From: a virus
Taxonomy: Duplodnaviria > Heunggongvirae > Uroviricota > Caudoviricetes
Strand: one strand, 5' to 3'
DNA: 42,973 nt
IMG/VR virus record: IMGVR_UViG_3300011626_000001
Span: 1-42,973 of that record
Positions 3,379 through 38,190 of the stretch are shown here, piece by piece. The notes beneath the pieces are model-generated. The model did no database searches. It had not been told where the DNA came from and saw only the letters and a program-made list of their open reading frames with translations. Both the position numbers and the translations under genes were made by a program. How positions within the stretch are numbered: the stretch's first letter is position 1; every line of letters begins with the position of its first letter.

Positions 3379-6050
3379 CAGTTAAGTTTCCCCGCTTTAA
3401 ACCTCTCCACGCCGTTGGCGTCATAAACAGCCAGCCCCGTTTCATTAAGTACGCTCCCTCCGGATGTACCTGAGCCTCCATATAGTTCAAAGGTGCCGTC
3501 GTTTCGCATAATCGTTCCCGATTTCCCGGCAACGTAATTTGCTGAGTACCACGACCCCACTTTAGCGAGCGTAATCGAGGCGTAGTTGATAAGCGCATCA
3601 TTGATAAACACCTGACCATTAACGGCAGTAAACGCCAGCTGGTAGCTCTGGTTAGTTGTGTTGTAAATCGCAAAGGTGTCTGCACTGAATAAGGCAAAAG
3701 ACTGCGTAGAGCCGCCATTCCCTTCAATGCCCAGCTGCATACCGGCCACATATTTCGTGCCATTCTTGTCAATCTGGACTTTTACGCCCCACTGAGCAGA
3801 CAATTTCCCGCTCAGATCAGCGTAAGCGCTGGATACCTGCTGTACTGATGAGGTGTTCTGGTCAGACTGCGCCTGAATCTGATCCATACGTTGTGCGTAG
3901 GCCGAATCATTCGTCGCGATGGTCTGCCTGACGCTGATGATATCAGCGCGGTTGCGCCCGCTAGCTTCAAACTGATGATCTACGGAAGCGTCCAGGTTAA
4001 GCGCGTTCTGGAGGATTGCATCAATACCCGTATCGATAGTGGAGCTAAGCCTGTCAAAAGCTTCTGACTTGCGTATTTGCGTGTCGATGTAATCAATCAG
4101 CTCACCAGTATCCGTGTTACACACTACGGGAACCTCAACAAACGCCGACGTTCCAAATGCGTTTATAGTCCGCACGTACCAGTAATAGGTTGGTCCAATC
4201 TTGAGCTCGTGTGCCGTCCAGTTGCTGCCAATACCTGCCCGGCTGGCATTGGCTTCCACGGTTGCCTGGGTGGTGTTTGGGAGCTTCGTTAAGCCTGACG
4301 TCCAGAAATCAAACTGCGTCGAAACATTCGTGATCTCATTGATGCGAGGAATGAGCGTTACAGCAAAATACCCCTGCTTTTGTTCAACGACAGAAGGCGG
4401 CGGCGGCGCTTCGATGCTGAATTCAAGATAGGCCTCCGGTGACTGGGCGCCCATCTGGTTTACAGCTATAACGTGTGCAGTATAAGTATCGCGCAGCAGG
4501 CCGGTCAGGCGAGTGAATGAACCAGGTACCTGAACGGAAAGAACCAGTTCCCCATCCTTGCGAATAAGAACCTGGTTATAAACATACTGACCAACGTTCT
4601 GCCATGAAAGCACGCCCTGAACTACCTGTCCGATTTCCTCAACGGTATATTTCAGGTTCTGAGGCTGAGCGACGCCTCCTGTAGGAAGTTGCGTAAATGG
4701 TGGGCGCTCAATAGGCTTGCCAATGGCATCACCCCACACCTCAGCAGTTTCCTGCTTCAGCGTCAGTTGCACACCATTCTGGACGCCAAATTTCCAGTCG
4801 GTTACCCGCATTTCAACGTCAGTAATACCGAGTGATGGAAAATTAACCTTCACGTACATGCCCGGTCGATATCGGTAGCCGCTCAGATTGAGAGTGACGT
4901 TCATCGTTCTGGAGATGCGTGTACGTTTAAGCTTAACGTCAGCCAGACGCTGCGCCTGAAATTCAGAGGTAACAAAGCGCAGTTTGAGGTCTTGTGAGAT
5001 TTCCACGCCGTCTTCTGCCACCCACTCAGAGACTGAGACGGTTGGGAAATCCACCTCGGAAAACCGCTGCATCGGGTCGATAAAGGTGCCTTTAATGGTA
5101 TTCACACGTTCTGATTGCGATACTTCAGGCATCATTTCTATGTCGCCAGCGAGCTGACTTTCGGTAATCACCTCTACAGCTGGCCCGTAATAGGCCCCGA
5201 CGAGGATGCCGTGTTTGCCAGCAATGTAGGTCGCCTCGCCTGCGCATGCTGAAAGCATGGCCTCCAGTATGCTTGCCTTATTCTCGCTCAGGTCAAATTC
5301 ACCATTAATGGTGTAACGCGGCTCCGTCTGATTACTGCTGCTTGTTACCCTTTCATCTGAAATATTTGCCGCTTCCTTGAACTGGTCCCAGTTAATGTCT
5401 GAGTCAGGCACTTTCAGGTAATTGCGGTAATAATCCAGGATGCACAGAGCGGCATTATTGCTGTAAACCGTGGCGCCGGTTCTGGGGTCATAAACCTTTT
5501 TGCCCATCTTCTCGACGGTGATGTTAGGGATACCCGCGGGGAATTTCTCCGCATCAAACTTCAGCGTCACCCTGAGCCAGCTGATGCCTTTACCAATCAT
5601 GTCCTCTTTCCATGACGGCGCGTTCTGCAGCAGGTAGGGGTCTGCAGTCTGTCGGTCGATGTGCACCTCGTAAGAGGCTTTATCGCCAAACGTAGAGATG
5701 TCATTGTCACCCAGATAAACTGCACCTACGCCAGTAATTGGATGCCCGGCAAGCGTAATTGCAAGGTGAAGAAGTTCGCCATCTGTCTGCTCTCCTGGTT
5801 GCTCCTCAGAAAAGAAAAGCGTCCCGGCAGAAAGGGATTTCCCGTAAATTACCGTCTTTGCACTGGCAGCGGCTCTCAGTACCTGCTTGCGTTCCTGAGT
5901 ATCCCTGTAACCGTTCATTGATGGTTTTTTTGTAAGGGCCTGAGAAGCAAGCTGGGCGGCTATGGTAATAACCATGGCAATGGCGTAAGCCTGATTCGCT
6001 ACAGCAATACCGCCCGCGATAGCGGCCACAACGGGAATAGCAGCAGGCAT
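3378..6050 (-). CDS. Host-specificity / central tail tip protein (J-like, 890 aa)
   Basis: Large protein directly after the minor tail proteins; N-terminal hydrophobic region and repeat-rich beta-type C-terminal region; operon position. Confidence 0.8.
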   Translation of the reverse strand: MPAAIPVVAAIAGGIAVANQAYAIAMVITIAAQLASQALTKKPSMNGYRDTQERKQVLRAAASAKTVIYGKSLSAGTLFFSEEQPGEQTDGELLHLAITLAGHPITGVGAVYLGDNDISTFGDKASYEVHIDRQTADPYLLQNAPSWKEDMIGKGISWLRVTLKFDAEKFPAGIPNITVEKMGKKVYDPRTGATVYSNNAALCILDYYRNYLKVPDSDINWDQFKEAANISDERVTSSSNQTEPRYTINGEFDLSENKASILEAMLSACAGEATYIAGKHGILVGAYYGPAVEVITESQLAGDIEMMPEVSQSERVNTIKGTFIDPMQRFSEVDFPTVSVSEWVAEDGVEISQDLKLRFVTSEFQAQRLADVKLKRTRISRTMNVTLNLSGYRYRPGMYVKVNFPSLGITDVEMRVTDWKFGVQNGVQLTLKQETAEVWGDAIGKPIERPPFTQLPTGGVAQPQNLKYTVEEIGQVVQGVLSWQNVGQYVYNQVLIRKDGELVLSVQVPGSFTRLTGLLRDTYTAHVIAVNQMGAQSPEAYLEFSIEAPPPPSVVEQKQGYFAVTLIPRINEITNVSTQFDFWTSGLTKLPNTTQATVEANASRAGIGSNWTAHELKIGPTYYWYVRTINAFGTSAFVEVPVVCNTDTGELIDYIDTQIRKSEAFDRLSSTIDTGIDAILQNALNLDASVDHQFEASGRNRADIISVRQTIATNDSAYAQRMDQIQAQSDQNTSSVQQVSSAYADLSGKLSAQWGVKVQIDKNGTKYVAGMQLGIEGNGGSTQSFALFSADTFAIYNTTNQSYQLAFTAVNGQVFINDALINYASITLAKVGSWYSANYVAGKSGTIMRNDGTFELYGGSGTSGGSVLNETGLAVYDANGVERFKAGKLN

Positions 6051-33966: not shown

Positions 33967-34962
33967 ATGGAACAACATGACGTTTTTGTGTACACAGGTG
34001 ATATCCACCGTGATGGTTATCTCGATCTTACTAATGCCATAAAAAAACGCAAAAAAGCTCAAGGACTCAGCACTGAGGTTACTTTTTGTGTCGCCACTTA
34101 TGGCGGAGATCCAAATGCAGGCTATCGTATAGGAAGAGCGCTTCAACATAACTATGAGAAAGTGAATCTTTTAGTAGTGGGCCCCTGTAAGAGTGCCGGG
34201 ACTTTGATAGCGATTGCAGCTGATAAGCTTATCATTGGAGACATGGGTGAGCTTGGCCCCCTTGATATACAGCTTAAAAAAAATGACGAAATTGGCGAGA
34301 TGAGTTCAGGCCTGGTCATAATGACGGCCTTAGATGCGTTAAAAGATCGCTCTATTTCGACGTTCAATTCTCATCTGGTTAAGATAAGATACGAAAACCA
34401 GATAAGTACGAAGATGTCAGCTGACATTGCTGCGAAGTTAACTGAGGCGTTAGTTGCTCCCATGGCTGCTCAGATAGATCCAATTAAACTTGGAGAGCAT
34501 CAACGAGCTATGAGCATTGCCATAACCTATGGGCAGCGACTCAGTGACAAATCTAAGTGTTTGAAGGATGGAGCTTTATTTAAATTAATTGCCTCTTATC
34601 CTTCACATGGTTTTGTGATAGATCGCAAAGAGGCTCGCGAACTTTTTCACCATGTTGAAAGTCCAACTGGTTACGCTGAAGCACTTTACGAGATTTTTTA
34701 TCAAAAAATTCACGAGGGTGAAATTCAACCTTACGGTAAACCGAAGGTGCTCGATTTCACTATCGATCCTGAAACAACTGAGAATAATGGAGATGCCAAT
34801 GCACAATCACCCGGAGATGGAGGTACTGAACAAGATGATTCAGGACCAAATCCAGGAGAGTCAAGATCTGGCAAAGCGAGCAGAGCAAAATCTAAACGAT
34901 CTGAAGCGTCAACTGGAGCCCTACCAGTTCAGCAGCCCAATGACATACCGCCTCCAGAGTGA
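33967..34962 (+). CDS. ClpP/S49-fold (SDH-type) serine peptidase-like protein with charged low-complexity C-terminal tail (331 aa)
   Basis: Segment GPCKSAGTLIAIAADKLIIGDMGELGPLDIQ resembles the Ser-containing core of ClpP/SppA-fold peptidases; no signal peptide; AT-rich gene. Confidence 0.55.
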   Translation: MEQHDVFVYTGDIHRDGYLDLTNAIKKRKKAQGLSTEVTFCVATYGGDPNAGYRIGRALQHNYEKVNLLVVGPCKSAGTLIAIAADKLIIGDMGELGPLDIQLKKNDEIGEMSSGLVIMTALDALKDRSISTFNSHLVKIRYENQISTKMSADIAAKLTEALVAPMAAQIDPIKLGEHQRAMSIAITYGQRLSDKSKCLKDGALFKLIASYPSHGFVIDRKEARELFHHVESPTGYAEALYEIFYQKIHEGEIQPYGKPKVLDFTIDPETTENNGDANAQSPGDGGTEQDDSGPNPGESRSGKASRAKSKRSEASTGALPVQQPNDIPPPE

Positions 34963-35008: not shown

Positions 35009-35144
35009 ATACCCGCCACACCAATAGCCCGCCATTGAGCTGGCTTTTTCATGCTGCTCTAAAGTTATCAGTTATGCTGCCGTTAACCTCTTTGCTCTGG
35101 AAAACAGTAGTACCAATAACGACAATATGAAATCAAGCCGGTTG

Positions 35145-35168
35145 GCCCGCTATGCGCGGGCTTTTTTT
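35145..35168 (+). terminator. Terminator hairpin GCCCGC-TATGC-GCGGGC + T7
   Basis: Read directly; member of a repeated hairpin family. Confidence 0.5.
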
Positions 35169-35312
35169 CTTTCAATACATAAACTAACGTTATCCTGACG
35201 AGTAAAATTACTACGCTATATTTCACAGCAACGTAGCGGCAGTAGCCTATGCTTTGAAAGCACATTATTTGCTGTGTGCGATGGCTTTCCCCATTGGAAT
35301 TTGTGTCTTCTT

Positions 35313-35336
35313 GCCCGCCATAGAGCGGGCTTTTTT
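35313..35336 (+). terminator. Terminator hairpin GCCCGC-CATAGA-GCGGGC + T6
   Basis: Read directly; member of a repeated hairpin family. Confidence 0.5.
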
Positions 35337-35500
35337 AAGCCAACTCCCGCTGCCCAGAACAATCCTAACTTCATGACTTGTAGGACCATTCCCACATCGC
35401 AAGAACTCACACACTCCTAACCTTTAATGGCTACACGCATACAGGATGTTGCGCGTTAGCTGTACGAGATTTGCAGGTTAACCCTGTGCTGAATCACTTT

Positions 35501-35524
35501 GCCCGCCACTGAGCGGGCTTTTTT
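35501..35524 (+). terminator. Terminator hairpin GCCCGC-CACTGA-GCGGGC + T6
   Basis: Read directly; member of a repeated hairpin family. Confidence 0.5.
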
Positions 35525-35559
35525 GTGCCTGCAGATCCCACTTCGTAAAAATAAATCAC

Positions 35560-35650
35560 CTTTGAAAACAAAGCTTTTTGTATTTCTCGCCTTTAATTAC
35601 AATATTTATTGTTTACAGTATACAAACTTTATTGTAATTTTACTCCATCA
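35560..35650 (+). promoter_or_regulatory. Candidate OL/PL operator-promoter region
   Basis: AT-rich; contains TTGTAT / ATACAA half-site-like motifs shared with OR, and TTACAAT...ATTGTAA inverted repeats; lies upstream of nutL and N. Confidence 0.45.
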
Positions 35651-35681
35651 GCAGGACGCAGTACCCAACAGGATGTTGGAT

Positions 35682-35728
35682 CGCTCTTTAACATTGATGG
35701 GGTTTATTTCTCCCGCCCTTGTGGGAGA
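35682..35728 (+). promoter_or_regulatory. nutL: boxA (CGCTCTTTA) plus boxB hairpin (TCTCCC-GCCCTTGT-GGGAGA)
   Basis: Consensus boxA read directly; hairpin loop differs by one base from the nutR boxB loop. Confidence 0.6.
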
Positions 35729-35919
35729 CCAAAGAGCAATTGGCTTTGGGGTGTAATGAGGTGTGCTCAAGCGAGCTGCAGCGCCGGTCGACGCAAAGAC
35801 CAGTGAATCGACTGTGTCACAGCAACTGGTGACCAATACAAAAACAGAGCGGCTGGAAATAAGCGAGATAGCGACTCGGTGCCTCATTACACCACCTAAG
35901 CCAATTACCGGAGGTAAAT

Positions 35920-36168
35920 ATGTTTGCAGCTACCAACAGCGTCAGCCGTCGCTACCTCAAGCGTGGCGAACTGATCGCAAAACGCCGTGCAGAAGCGGCA
36001 GAAGGTAAAGCCCGCGTTGATGTCAGTGCTGAGCGAGTTTCACGCGCTGTATCTGCACCGAGCCTTCGCGAAAAGCACGAAGATGGCGCCATGTGCCTGC
36101 CCGCCATAGCGATTTACAGCGCCGGGCATCGCAAGGTTCGCAAAGACGCGACGCACATCGTTAAATAA
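35920..36168 (+). CDS. N: Antitermination protein N (P22 gp24-like, 82 aa)
   Basis: N-terminal arginine-rich motif; C-terminal LPAIAIYSAGHRKVRK resembles the P22 gene 24 C-terminus as I recall it; GGAGG SD; downstream of nutL. Confidence 0.7.
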   Translation: MFAATNSVSRRYLKRGELIAKRRAEAAEGKARVDVSAERVSRAVSAPSLREKHEDGAMCLPAIAIYSAGHRKVRKDATHIVK

Positions 36169-36261
36169 ACGAAGTGCTGAAAAGGTTATTAACTAATTCT
36201 GTATTTGCATAATCAGCCATTTTTTCTAGGCTTAAAAAGTAACTTAAGCCCAGGAGGAAAT

Positions 36262-36588
36262 ATGTTAGAGCAGTACAAAAAATGCATCGAAGCGTGTTAC
36301 CTGTGTGCAGCTGCTTGCGATAACTGTGCGGCATCGTGCCTTGAAGAAGAGAACCTGGAAATGATGCGCCAGTGCATCAAAATGGATATGCAATGCGCAA
36401 ACATTTGCCGACTCGCTGCTCAGTTTATGGCTTTGAAAAGTGAGTCAGCCAACGAAATTTGTCAGCTGTGCGCAGATGTTTGCCAGAAGTGCGGTGATGA
36501 ATGTGGTCAGCATAACCATGACCACTGTCAGGAATGTTCCAAAGCCTGTCATCACTGTGCAGAGCAGTGCCGCAAGATGGCCGCTTGA
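36262..36588 (+). CDS. Cysteine-rich four-helix-bundle-type metal-binding protein (about 18 Cys in 108 aa)
   Basis: Repeated CxxxC spacing throughout; AGGAGG SD; own AT-rich upstream region and terminator. Confidence 0.55.
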   Translation: MLEQYKKCIEACYLCAAACDNCAASCLEEENLEMMRQCIKMDMQCANICRLAAQFMALKSESANEICQLCADVCQKCGDECGQHNHDHCQECSKACHHCAEQCRKMAA

Positions 36589-36605
36589 ATATTGCGAAAA
36601 CCAAT

Positions 36606-36628
36606 AACCCGCTTCGGCGGGTTTTTTA
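36606..36628 (+). terminator. Rho-independent terminator (AACCCGC-TTCG-GCGGGTT + T6)
   Basis: Read directly after the Cys-rich gene stop. Confidence 0.6.
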
Positions 36629-36813
36629 TTGCCTAAAACAGGCCGTTTAAGTGACACCGCAATGGCCTGTTACGACAGGTCATGACGGTGCATTTGCACC
36701 AGACGCGTAATGAGCCGCAATGCGGTACGAGAGTTTTTCGCCTTTGGCTCCTGTAGGAATGCAGGGGCCATTTTTTTAACCACACCACCCCAACCCATTT
36801 AAGGATGTCCACG

Positions 36814-36951
36814 ATGAATCTTGCGATCGCGGGCGGCACCATCGTGGATGCCGCTCAACTTTACCCTTCCCAGTTAACCCGCTTAACCGAACGCCTGCGC
36901 ACTATCTGCCGCTGGCTGACCGACACCATGAAACAGCCCGGGAGACCATGA
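36814..36951 (+). CDS. Small hypothetical early protein (45 aa)
   Basis: Hand-translated; AAGGA SD; stop overlaps next start. Confidence 0.3.
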   Translation: MNLAIAGGTIVDAAQLYPSQLTRLTERLRTICRWLTDTMKQPGRP

Positions 36952-37066
36952 TGAAAATTCGCTACTTCCAGAAAGCGCAGGAGCTTTCACGAGAGGCCCA
37001 TCTGTTCGGCGACAGCGCGAAATGGGCTATGGCAATGCTGTTGTTACGGAGAGCGCACCAGTGAAA
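36947..37066 (+). CDS. Small hypothetical early protein (39 aa)
   Basis: Hand-translated; overlapping start/stop coupling on both sides. Confidence 0.25.
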
Positions 37067-37372
37067 CTTTCATGGCGAGCAAAACAGGAAGTCGAAGAGA
37101 TTATGAAAAACCTCTCTGAGACCGATTTAGAGCGCATCGGCGATGAAGTCGACGCAATGATGGACCAGCACAAGATTAACCCGCTGATGACGGCGCTGTG
37201 TGCGTTTCTGCCGAAACATTTCGATTATCCCGCTGCCGAGCTGGTCGACCAAGACGACGAGCAGTACGAAGCCGCCGAAAACTTCCTGCGCGATGCGCTG
37301 GTGAAAGTCGCTAAGCGGGACATGGCGATCGCCATCTGGAAAAGCAGACACAGCTTCGATGAGGTGGCGTGA
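37061..37372 (+). CDS. Hypothetical acidic early protein (about 103 aa)
   Basis: ORF in track; start probably the GTG overlapping the upstream stop; stop overlaps the exonuclease start. Confidence 0.4.
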   Translation: MKLSWRAKQEVEEIMKNLSETDLERIGDEVDAMMDQHKINPLMTALCAFLPKHFDYPAAELVDQDDEQYEAAENFLRDALVKVAKRDMAIAIWKSRHSFDEVA

Positions 37373-38190
37373 TGGAGCCCGGCATCTATTACGACATCAG
37401 CAACGAGTCGTACCACAGCGGCCCCGGCATCAGCAAATCGCAGCTGGACGACATCGCTATAAACCCGGCCATCTTCCAGTGGCGCAAAGAAGCGCCCGAG
37501 GACGAAGAGAAAAAAGCTGCGCTGGATATGGGCACCGCCCTGCACTGCCTGCTGCTGGAGCCCGAAGAATTCGATAACCGCTTCATCGTGGCGCCAGAAT
37601 TCAACCGGCGCACCAACGAGGGAAAGGCGAACGAGAAAGCTTTTCTGAAAGACTGCGCCGGGCTGGGCATGACTGTGATGGACGCCGAGGAAGGTCGCAA
37701 ACTGAAGCTTATGCGCGCCAGCGCCCTCGCCCATCCGGCCGCGCGCTGGCTGCTGGAAGCTGAAGGCCATCAGGAAGCATCAATCTACTGGAACGACGAG
37801 CAGACCGGCGAGCTTTGCCGGATCCGGCCAGACAAGTTCCTGTCCGGCCAGCCTGTCATCGTCGACGTGAAAAAAGTGGCTGATATGTCCCGCTTTGCCC
37901 GCCACGTCGAAGAGTTCCGCTATCACGTTCAGGACGCCTACTACCGCGAGGGCTTCAGTAAGCACTTCGGCGAGTACCCGCTTTTCGTGTTCATCGCCGT
38001 CAGCGAGTCGATCGACTGCGGCCGCTATCCGGTGCGCACCTTCCAGCTTCAGGAGGACGATGTTGCCGTCGGCTATGACCTGTTCCGCCGCGACCTGACC
38101 ACCTATCACGAATGCATGCTTACCGGTAACTGGGGCGGCATTGAAGAAATCACGCGCCCGGACTGGGCCAAAAGGAAGGATTACGCATGA
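37369..38190 (+). CDS. Recombination exonuclease (RecE/YqaJ-type PD-(D/E)XK nuclease)
   Basis: IYYDISNESYHSGPGISKSQLDDI N-terminus and IVDVKK motif typical of phage RecE-like exonucleases; coupled to the RecT-like gene. Confidence 0.6.
   Translation: MMEPGIYYDISNESYHSGPGISKSQLDDIAINPAIFQWRKEAPEDEEKKAALDMGTALHCLLLEPEEFDNRFIVAPEFNRRTNEGKANEKAFLKDCAGLGMTVMDAEEGRKLKLMRASALAHPAARWLLEAEGHQEASIYWNDEQTGELCRIRPDKFLSGQPVIVDVKKVADMSRFARHVEEFRYHVQDAYYREGFSKHFGEYPLFVFIAVSESIDCGRYPVRTFQLQEDDVAVGYDLFRRDLTTYHECMLTGNWGGIEEITRPDWAKRKDYA

Follow-up and report, generated by a model that had tools for sequence, protein, structure and literature searches.

A classical Csp3-type copper-storage gene carried as a cargo cassette between N and cIII of a lambdoid phage of Pantoea piersonii

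The window analysed here (the whole stretch of 42,973 nucleotides, IMG/VR virus record IMGVR_UViG_3300011626_000001) encodes, directly after the antitermination gene N of a lambdoid temperate phage, a protein that is a classical cytosolic Csp3 in all the sequence and fold features that can be checked in silico. The Csp3 family has been known since 2015-2016, and proteins of this kind carry the NCBI name 'four-helix bundle copper-binding protein'; what is new is that a phage carries csp3 as swappable cargo. Csp3s are tetramer-forming four-helix bundles with Cys-thiolate-lined cores; each monomer takes up about 19-20 Cu(I) (affinity near 1e17 per M). Their discovery challenged the view of bacteria as organisms without a cytosolic copper pool. 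The model put forward here, which we consider probable (roughly 0.8), is that of a Cu(I)-sequestering classical Csp3, carried as a moron in the slot between N and cIII and expressed both from a promoter of its own and from pL. The coordinates of the features involved are collected in the table.

Table. Features of the csp3 cassette and of the surrounding pL operon (positions are those of the window)
Feature	Position	Strand	Details
oL operators	35567-35582, 35598-35613, 35621-35636	+	TACAA-N6-TTGTA, pattern scan; feature span 35567-35645
Inferred pL promoter	TTTACA at 35612	+	17-nt spacer, then TAATTT; overlaps oL operators
nutL-like site	35672-35728	+	boxA CGCTCTTTAAC, then boxB-type hairpin; from sequence and fold
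N antitermination protein	35920-36168	+	82 aa; PF25694 E=8e-11, phrog_271; stop codon abuts cassette
csp3 upstream regulatory region and 5'UTR	36169-36261	+	93 nt between N stop codon and ATG
Best -35 candidate TTATTA	36186-36191	+	16-nt spacer to CATAAT; 8/12 matches
Conserved -10-like element TTGCATAATC	36205-36214	+	CATAAT at 36208-36213; putative own promoter
Shine-Dalgarno AGGAGG	36252-36257	+	4 nt 5' of csp3 ATG; read off the sequence
csp3 CDS	36262-36588	+	ATG to TGA, 108 aa plus stop, 19 Cys
Cassette intrinsic terminator	36606-36629	+	AACCCGC-TTCG-GCGGGTT, then T6
Conserved structured non-coding block	about 36645-36780	+	right-hand anchor of cargo slot; phage backbone, not cassette
Second, stronger terminator	36745-36770 plus T7	+	end of conserved structured block
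cIII homologue	36814-36951	+	45 aa; PF02061 Lambda_CIII on identical L143 gene; next backbone gene after slot

A sequence-only reading of this DNA had proposed a 108-aa cysteine-rich four-helix-bundle protein of a metal-storage family, with about 18 Cys in regular CxxxC spacing. The open reading frame and the family were both borne out, as was the cysteine richness; the exact number was not, since 19 Cys are counted (17.6% of residues, alongside 5 His and 7 Met), and the spacing is no plain repeat, CxxxC steps (n=8) alternating with CxxC steps (n=6) in an a/d heptad pattern along one helix face (Cys-to-Cys steps 4,3,4,3,4; 12; 7,4; 18; 3,4,3,4; 8; 3,4,3,4). The Pfam profile PF03860 (DUF326/Csp) matches the product in two stretches with 42.6 bits, above its gathering cut-off of 20.4. 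The best match among PDB sequences is the Bacillus subtilis Csp3 (BsCsp3, YhjQ; 5FIG apo, 6WKT Cu(I)-bound; E=1e-29, residues 3-108), followed by Streptomyces lividans Ccsp, Methylosinus Csp3, Methylocystis RkCsp3 and Csp1. The phage protein and BsCsp3, both of 108 aa, are about 53% identical and align without gaps, with all 19 Cys, H84/H86/H88 and D42 conserved. The mouth His motif reads QHNHDH in the phage protein, H84 and H88 being invariant and H86 at least 90% conserved in the alignment. In BsCsp3 the 19 Cys face the core and H84/H86/H88 lie at the mouth where Cu(I) enters (PMC5171941), and 'classical' Csp3s are defined by the mouth Cys and His motif (PMC10155185). Structure prediction, run as a check on the fold, gave an AlphaFold2 monomer model (built on 20 homologues, mean pLDDT 96) with four helices (2-26, 32-57, 63-81 and 87-107), which Foldseek superimposes on Cu(I)-BsCsp3 6WKT with a TM score of 0.93 and an rmsd of 1.1 Å. 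From their spacing and their alignment with BsCsp3, the 19 Cys are predicted to lie at core-facing (a/d) positions. The assignment to the Csp3 family rests on this profile match, on ligand conservation and on the predicted fold.

The differences from the characterized members are modest in the protein and larger in its setting. The phage protein has Met34/Met35 in place of the His34/Leu35 of BsCsp3, and its gene is a free-standing cassette, whereas BsCsp3 is encoded on the chromosome under the control of SigK and is co-transcribed with yhjR for metalation of the CotA laccase in sporulation (PMC9484137). Methylosinus trichosporium Csp3 and S. lividans Ccsp (5ARM, 6EI0) are likewise classical cytosolic proteins with the His mouth motif (TM 0.93-0.96), but are only 32-37% identical to the phage protein, have extra N-terminal or loop residues, and are chromosomal. 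The Tat-exported Csp1 and Csp2 share the Cys-lined four-helix bundle (5FJD, TM 0.88), with 13 Cys and a Met/His mouth in Csp1 (PMC5171941). Unlike these, the phage protein is predicted to be cytosolic, with neither a Tat nor a Sec signal: the Tat-type Csp1 model TIGR04401 (TAT_Cys_rich) scores 36.8 bits against a cut-off of 100 and is matched over its C-terminal 107 positions only, and the N-terminus (MLEQYKKC) has no extension, helix 1 of the model beginning at residue 2. Phage resources hold little of this family. No PHROGs v4 family matches the protein, and its exact sequence has no entry and no 90% representative in the protein cluster tables, while contigs reached via the neighbouring N protein do encode it. 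The GenBank phage collection contains a few records with Csp3 relatives, one of them labelled 'putative cysteine-rich DUF326 protein'. A literature search brought up no paper that connects phages with Csp3 or DUF326; the matches to DUF326 and phage that were examined proved to be prefix matches to DUF3263 and DUF3268.

The carrier is a lambdoid temperate phage of Pantoea piersonii, a host assignment made through the N protein, which is identical to WP_312158075.1 of that species. The same DNA occurs in four further samples; when 35400-37400 was queried by megablast, neither the phage collection nor complete E. coli genomes yielded a match, and the whole window has only patchy matches to known phages (at most 8% coverage). 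The window carries a lambda-type pL/N early-left operon, in which the plus-strand order is cI (S24 and HTH), a ClpP/SDH-like protease, oL/pL, nutL, N and the csp3 cassette, followed by the structured block with its terminator, cIII (conserved among related phages), orf116, a PD-(D/E)XK exonuclease and RecT. Cro, CII, O and P are present in the opposite direction to the pL operon, and the oL motif also occurs at oR (32916, 32939). The nutL assignment is made by analogy with lambda and P22. The cassette lies just downstream of N, as the earlier reading had stated, and csp3 is the second gene of the pL operon, preceded by oL/pL and nutL and located ahead of the first terminator, so that it would form part of the immediate-early transcript. 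The early expression after induction suggested earlier thus agrees with the map, from whose anatomy csp3 should be made immediately on induction.

Two other features of this region are described here for their own sake. Between the protease gene and pL (35130-35530, plus strand) lie three terminator-like hairpins (35144, 35313 and 35501), two of them nearly identical (GCCCGCCAnnGAGCGGGC plus T6), each following about 80 nt with weak Trp-leader-like Rfam matches (E 0.05-0.5); possible readings are repeated small transcription units and insulators in front of pL. The protease homologue itself (33967-34962, plus strand, 331 aa; phrog_21683, function unknown, E=1e-158; PF01972 just under its cut-off) directly follows cI, in the position of lambda rexAB, where the related phage L013 has other genes, and could be another cargo or defence gene expressed in the lysogen.

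Comparison with other genomes indicates that the csp3 unit, comprising regulatory region, Shine-Dalgarno sequence, gene and terminator, is a true cassette. When the window was compared by BLASTN with more than 20 Enterobacterales loci, the block from about 36171 to 36630 was found to recur with unrelated flanks in Leclercia, Atlantibacter, Huaxiibacter, Citrobacter, Erwinia and Pantoea, and for more than 15 non-phage Enterobacterales loci the left end of the match falls at 36163-36181. The limits drawn by comparison are 36169-36644 (roughly 460 bp), with the left edge directly after the N stop codon, and they enclose the span of 36180-36628 first proposed. The products of the Enterobacterales cassettes (e.g. 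WP_022649401.1, pKEC-dc3) are 81-86% identical to the phage protein; the close homologues in this range are stand-alone genes on Atlantibacter hermannii and Leclercia chromosomes, and copies at 80-90% amino acid identity are present in 122 plasmids of Enterobacter, Leclercia, Klebsiella, E. coli, Salmonella and Citrobacter. These chromosome and plasmid copies share the upstream region, Shine-Dalgarno sequence and terminator with the phage cassette (the hairpin of the terminator is kept in chromosomal cassettes), but stand in non-phage contexts and have diverged from the phage copy almost to saturation at synonymous sites, so that no sampled copy is the direct donor. Capture of the phage cassette from this Enterobacterales chromosome and plasmid gene pool is the best explanation of the comparisons. 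Terminal repeats and MITE-like or transposon-like ends were sought at the cassette and not found, the only repeat pairs being short and of a kind often due to chance.

Some of the non-phage copies have settings of their own. A Leclercia-type contig (L004, GCA_031977295.1) has two csp3 cassettes (4284-4736 and 7911-8366) lying 3.6 kb apart near a Rep3-type replication gene. On many large conjugative plasmids the cassette adjoins a UvrA paralogue and a glutathione-independent formaldehyde dehydrogenase (L186).

The insertion site in the phage is an exchange slot. Among 38 IMG/VR contigs with a related N, the match to the window breaks off at the N stop codon (36164-36168) and restarts at 36645-36655, and the slot between N and 36645 holds at least 8 alternative cargo types, whose extremes are one ORF of 45 aa and a 274-aa ORF accompanied by another of 76 aa. 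Only one of the 38 contigs contains csp3 (L150, which is L013); there the gene matches the window exactly over its first 243 nt and at about 79% identity over its last 81 nt, forming a mosaic junction, and the terminator is replaced, with a 121-aa minus-strand gene before the conserved block (L013 5365-5950 versus window 36505-36650). Another phage, L098, has an N that is 42% identical overall and a different repressor, and shares the N C-terminus, the N-csp3 junction and the cassette, the latter at 79% DNA identity. Since it is kept in both the diverged L098 and L013, the N-csp3 junction is old, maintained and exchanged as a module. On the right, the conserved block after 36645 is 87-98% identical across the 11 related-phage slots compared, whatever their cargo, and folds with -57.7 kcal/mol (z=-4.5). 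It could be a structured RNA, an sRNA or a backbone tL1 element, and it provides the right recombination anchor of the slot. Rfam searches in and around the cassette and the 3' block, at gathering and E-value thresholds, returned no family. Sub-threshold Rfam matches around the cassette were weak and were treated as chance. A small ORF spanning 36683-36802 was judged non-coding, since relatives do not preserve its reading frame.

The autonomy that had been claimed for the cassette is therefore upheld, in that the promoter-gene-terminator block stands in non-phage chromosomes and plasmids and the N-cIII site is an exchange slot. Presence or absence at a fixed site, a terminator of its own, deviant composition and non-phage homologues together point to csp3 being a phage moron, or cargo cassette. 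Morons and conversion genes of lambdoid phages include ral and sieB after N in lambda, stx between Q and the lysis genes, and sodC of Gifsy-2 and Fels-1. The csp3 unit resembles them in being self-contained, in its terminator and different base composition, and in its presence or absence at a fixed operon site; unlike them, it carries a metal-storage protein.

A second csp3 lineage occupies another such position. About 44 viral contigs (IMG/VR L099-L142; e.g. L112 3160-4850) carry a second allele (92-100% identity among themselves, about 65% to the window). The gene order there is Q-like antiterminator (phrog_753), terminator, tRNA-Arg(UCU), small ORF, csp3, holin (phrog_126), endolysin and Rz, with mosaic flanking modules. 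This arrangement of Q, tRNA, cargo and holin is that of Stx phages, in which stx takes the cargo place. A search of 5,426 complete E. coli genomes did not find the allele. Upstream of it the DNA has no relation to that of the window cassette, and the allele forms a separate clade (bootstrap 100%); csp3 appears on these grounds to have been captured independently twice by phages.

Selection on the gene is evident in its substitutions: where computable, dN/dS against other phage and chromosomal copies is 0.02-0.15, with dN of 0.03-0.10 and dS large or saturated, indicating a functional gene under selection and no chance ORF. Two minus-strand ORFs (36161-36334 and 36445-36657) and a 127-aa TTG-started extension of csp3 were rejected, since the strong constraint on the plus-strand frame would produce them as by-products. 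These data also bear on whether csp3 is simply a neutral hitch-hiker, that is, a recently captured host gene of no benefit to phage or lysogen. Such a gene might be expected in a slot that accepts many unrelated cargos, and in a phage found in only a handful of samples, but it is highly improbable here, where the N-csp3 junction persists at about 21% DNA divergence, with synonymous sites near saturation and a dN/dS of 0.02, where no phage copy has lost any of the 19 Cys, and where two independent captures are seen.

The cassette also has its own expression signals, as had been described from the sequence. Its upstream region is AT-rich (33% GC, compared with 48.6% for the csp3 gene and 52.7% for the window), the AGGAGG Shine-Dalgarno sequence is present and its AGGAG is invariant across the alignment of 15 cassettes (A3), and the terminator described as strong is an intrinsic one, identified by terminator scan (36606-36623), with a 7-bp stem including 5 G-C pairs, a UUCG loop and T6 next to it (-13.3 kcal/mol in a 52-nt context). 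As the first terminator 3' of N, it occupies the tL1 position. The 5'UTR contains a short hairpin (36226-36253, plus strand), in which CTAGGCTTAA and TTAAGCCCAG pair across an 8-nt gap and the 3' arm abuts the Shine-Dalgarno sequence; similar, imperfect pairing is seen in other csp3 cassettes, and the hairpin could influence translation or mRNA stability.

The putative promoter is a -10-like element, TTGCATAAT (36205-36213), whose core (TTG, then ATAA) is invariant in the 15 aligned cassettes and which occurs once in the window. The promoter scan between N and csp3 gave no sigma-70 site at threshold and no strong consensus; the element falls below that threshold, which leaves it a putative promoter. 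Constraint on the region is nevertheless high. Positions -92 to -47 are 74-91% identical in eight of nine gapless comparisons with homologous cassettes (in the ninth, with Atlantibacter L001, homology begins only at 36205, giving 41% over this interval), as against 46-58% at the third codon positions of csp3. No CueR-type box was found upstream of csp3 or elsewhere in the cassette, so that copper-responsive control is not evident, and an operator pattern scan found no cI operator near the cassette. Expression of csp3 in the lysogen from the TTGCATAAT element may plausibly occur.

In the model favoured here, the lysogen would transcribe csp3 at a low level from this promoter-like element, which has no cI operator, and on induction pL would drive N and csp3 together, csp3 being an immediate-early gene, since the interval from nutL and N to csp3 contains no terminator. 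N-modified polymerase would then pass the cassette and backbone terminators into cIII, exo and recT. A different possibility is that csp3 serves the lytic programme and not the lysogen, its 'own promoter' being a silent relic of the captured host gene; immediate-early Csp3 would lower free Cu(I), thereby shielding Fe-S and other replication enzymes, or would manipulate copper sensing. The location of csp3 ahead of the first terminator of the pL operon is what such a role would call for, the candidate promoter is weak, and the independent lineage of about 44 contigs lies, with its unrelated upstream DNA, in a late-lytic slot between Q/tRNA-Arg and holin. However, the upstream region is more constrained than synonymous sites even between phage copies (91% versus 58% at third codon positions, window versus L098), which argues that the promoter-like region is used. 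Furthermore, both slots are classical lysogenic-conversion positions, those of ral/sieB and stx, and most close phage relatives lack csp3, so that lytic growth as such does not depend on it. An exclusively lytic role is therefore rather unlikely: the constrained promoter region and the conversion-gene slots favour a benefit to the lysogen, while the two placements in strongly induced operons keep a lytic benefit alive.

As to function, the protein would, by inference from its family, buffer and sequester cytosolic Cu(I), and possibly other thiophilic ions, and so make the lysogen, the induced cell, or both more tolerant of copper. In ΔcopA E. coli, BsCsp3 gives protection against copper and a doubled cell copper content (PMC5171941). 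By crude motif matching among relatives at 53-64% identity, P1B-ATPase, multicopper-oxidase or HMA motifs lie within 5 kb of 27 of the 80 best genomic relatives and of none of 92 control loci. The neighbours in the close Enterobacterales clade are not copper genes (formaldehyde dehydrogenase, TetR with aldehyde dehydrogenase, SDR, arsRBC), and it might be that in this clade the bundle is mainly a sink for another soft or thiophilic species, such as Ag(I), Hg(II), Cd(II), Zn(II) or As(III), or for electrophiles and oxidants such as aldehydes, copper not being the physiological ligand. Consistent with this, the homologue on pKEC-dc3 adjoins a glutathione-independent formaldehyde dehydrogenase, an alkene reductase and a quinone oxidoreductase, those of Leclercia adjoin TetR and an aldehyde dehydrogenase or directly follow arsRBC, and that of Atlantibacter adjoins TetR and an SDR; copper-homeostasis motifs were found near none of the Leclercia or Atlantibacter loci, and the missing CueR box would also fit. 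By contrast, all the Cu(I) ligands of BsCsp3 are retained, including the His motif of 'classical' Csp3s, the solved homologues have all been characterized as Cu(I) proteins, and the more distant relatives are enriched beside copper and heavy-metal genes. In addition, the neighbours of csp3 differ from locus to locus, as expected of a free-standing cassette, and so carry little functional signal. A ligand other than copper is accordingly held to be unlikely, and Cu(I) sequestration remains the preferred function.

With at least two captures, in the pL slot and in the Q-to-holin slot, Csp3 may tentatively be seen as a recurrently selected phage cargo that confers a measurable copper-related advantage, although we regard this as possible rather than probable. 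If true, the advantage would be lysogenic conversion to copper tolerance, or protected phage production in copper-stressed cells, for example in plant-surface Pantoea exposed to copper bactericides, and csp3 would be the first phage-borne cytosolic metal-storage function within the literature searched. An intact Csp3 is found as a 460-bp plug-in on phages, plasmids and chromosomes of Enterobacterales, and in phages it occupies two classical conversion-gene slots. The phage csp3 offers a simple genetic system for the role of Csp3 in the Gram-negative cell, and with it metal buffering joins the traits that temperate phages can carry between Pantoea, Enterobacter and Klebsiella, plant-associated as well as clinical.
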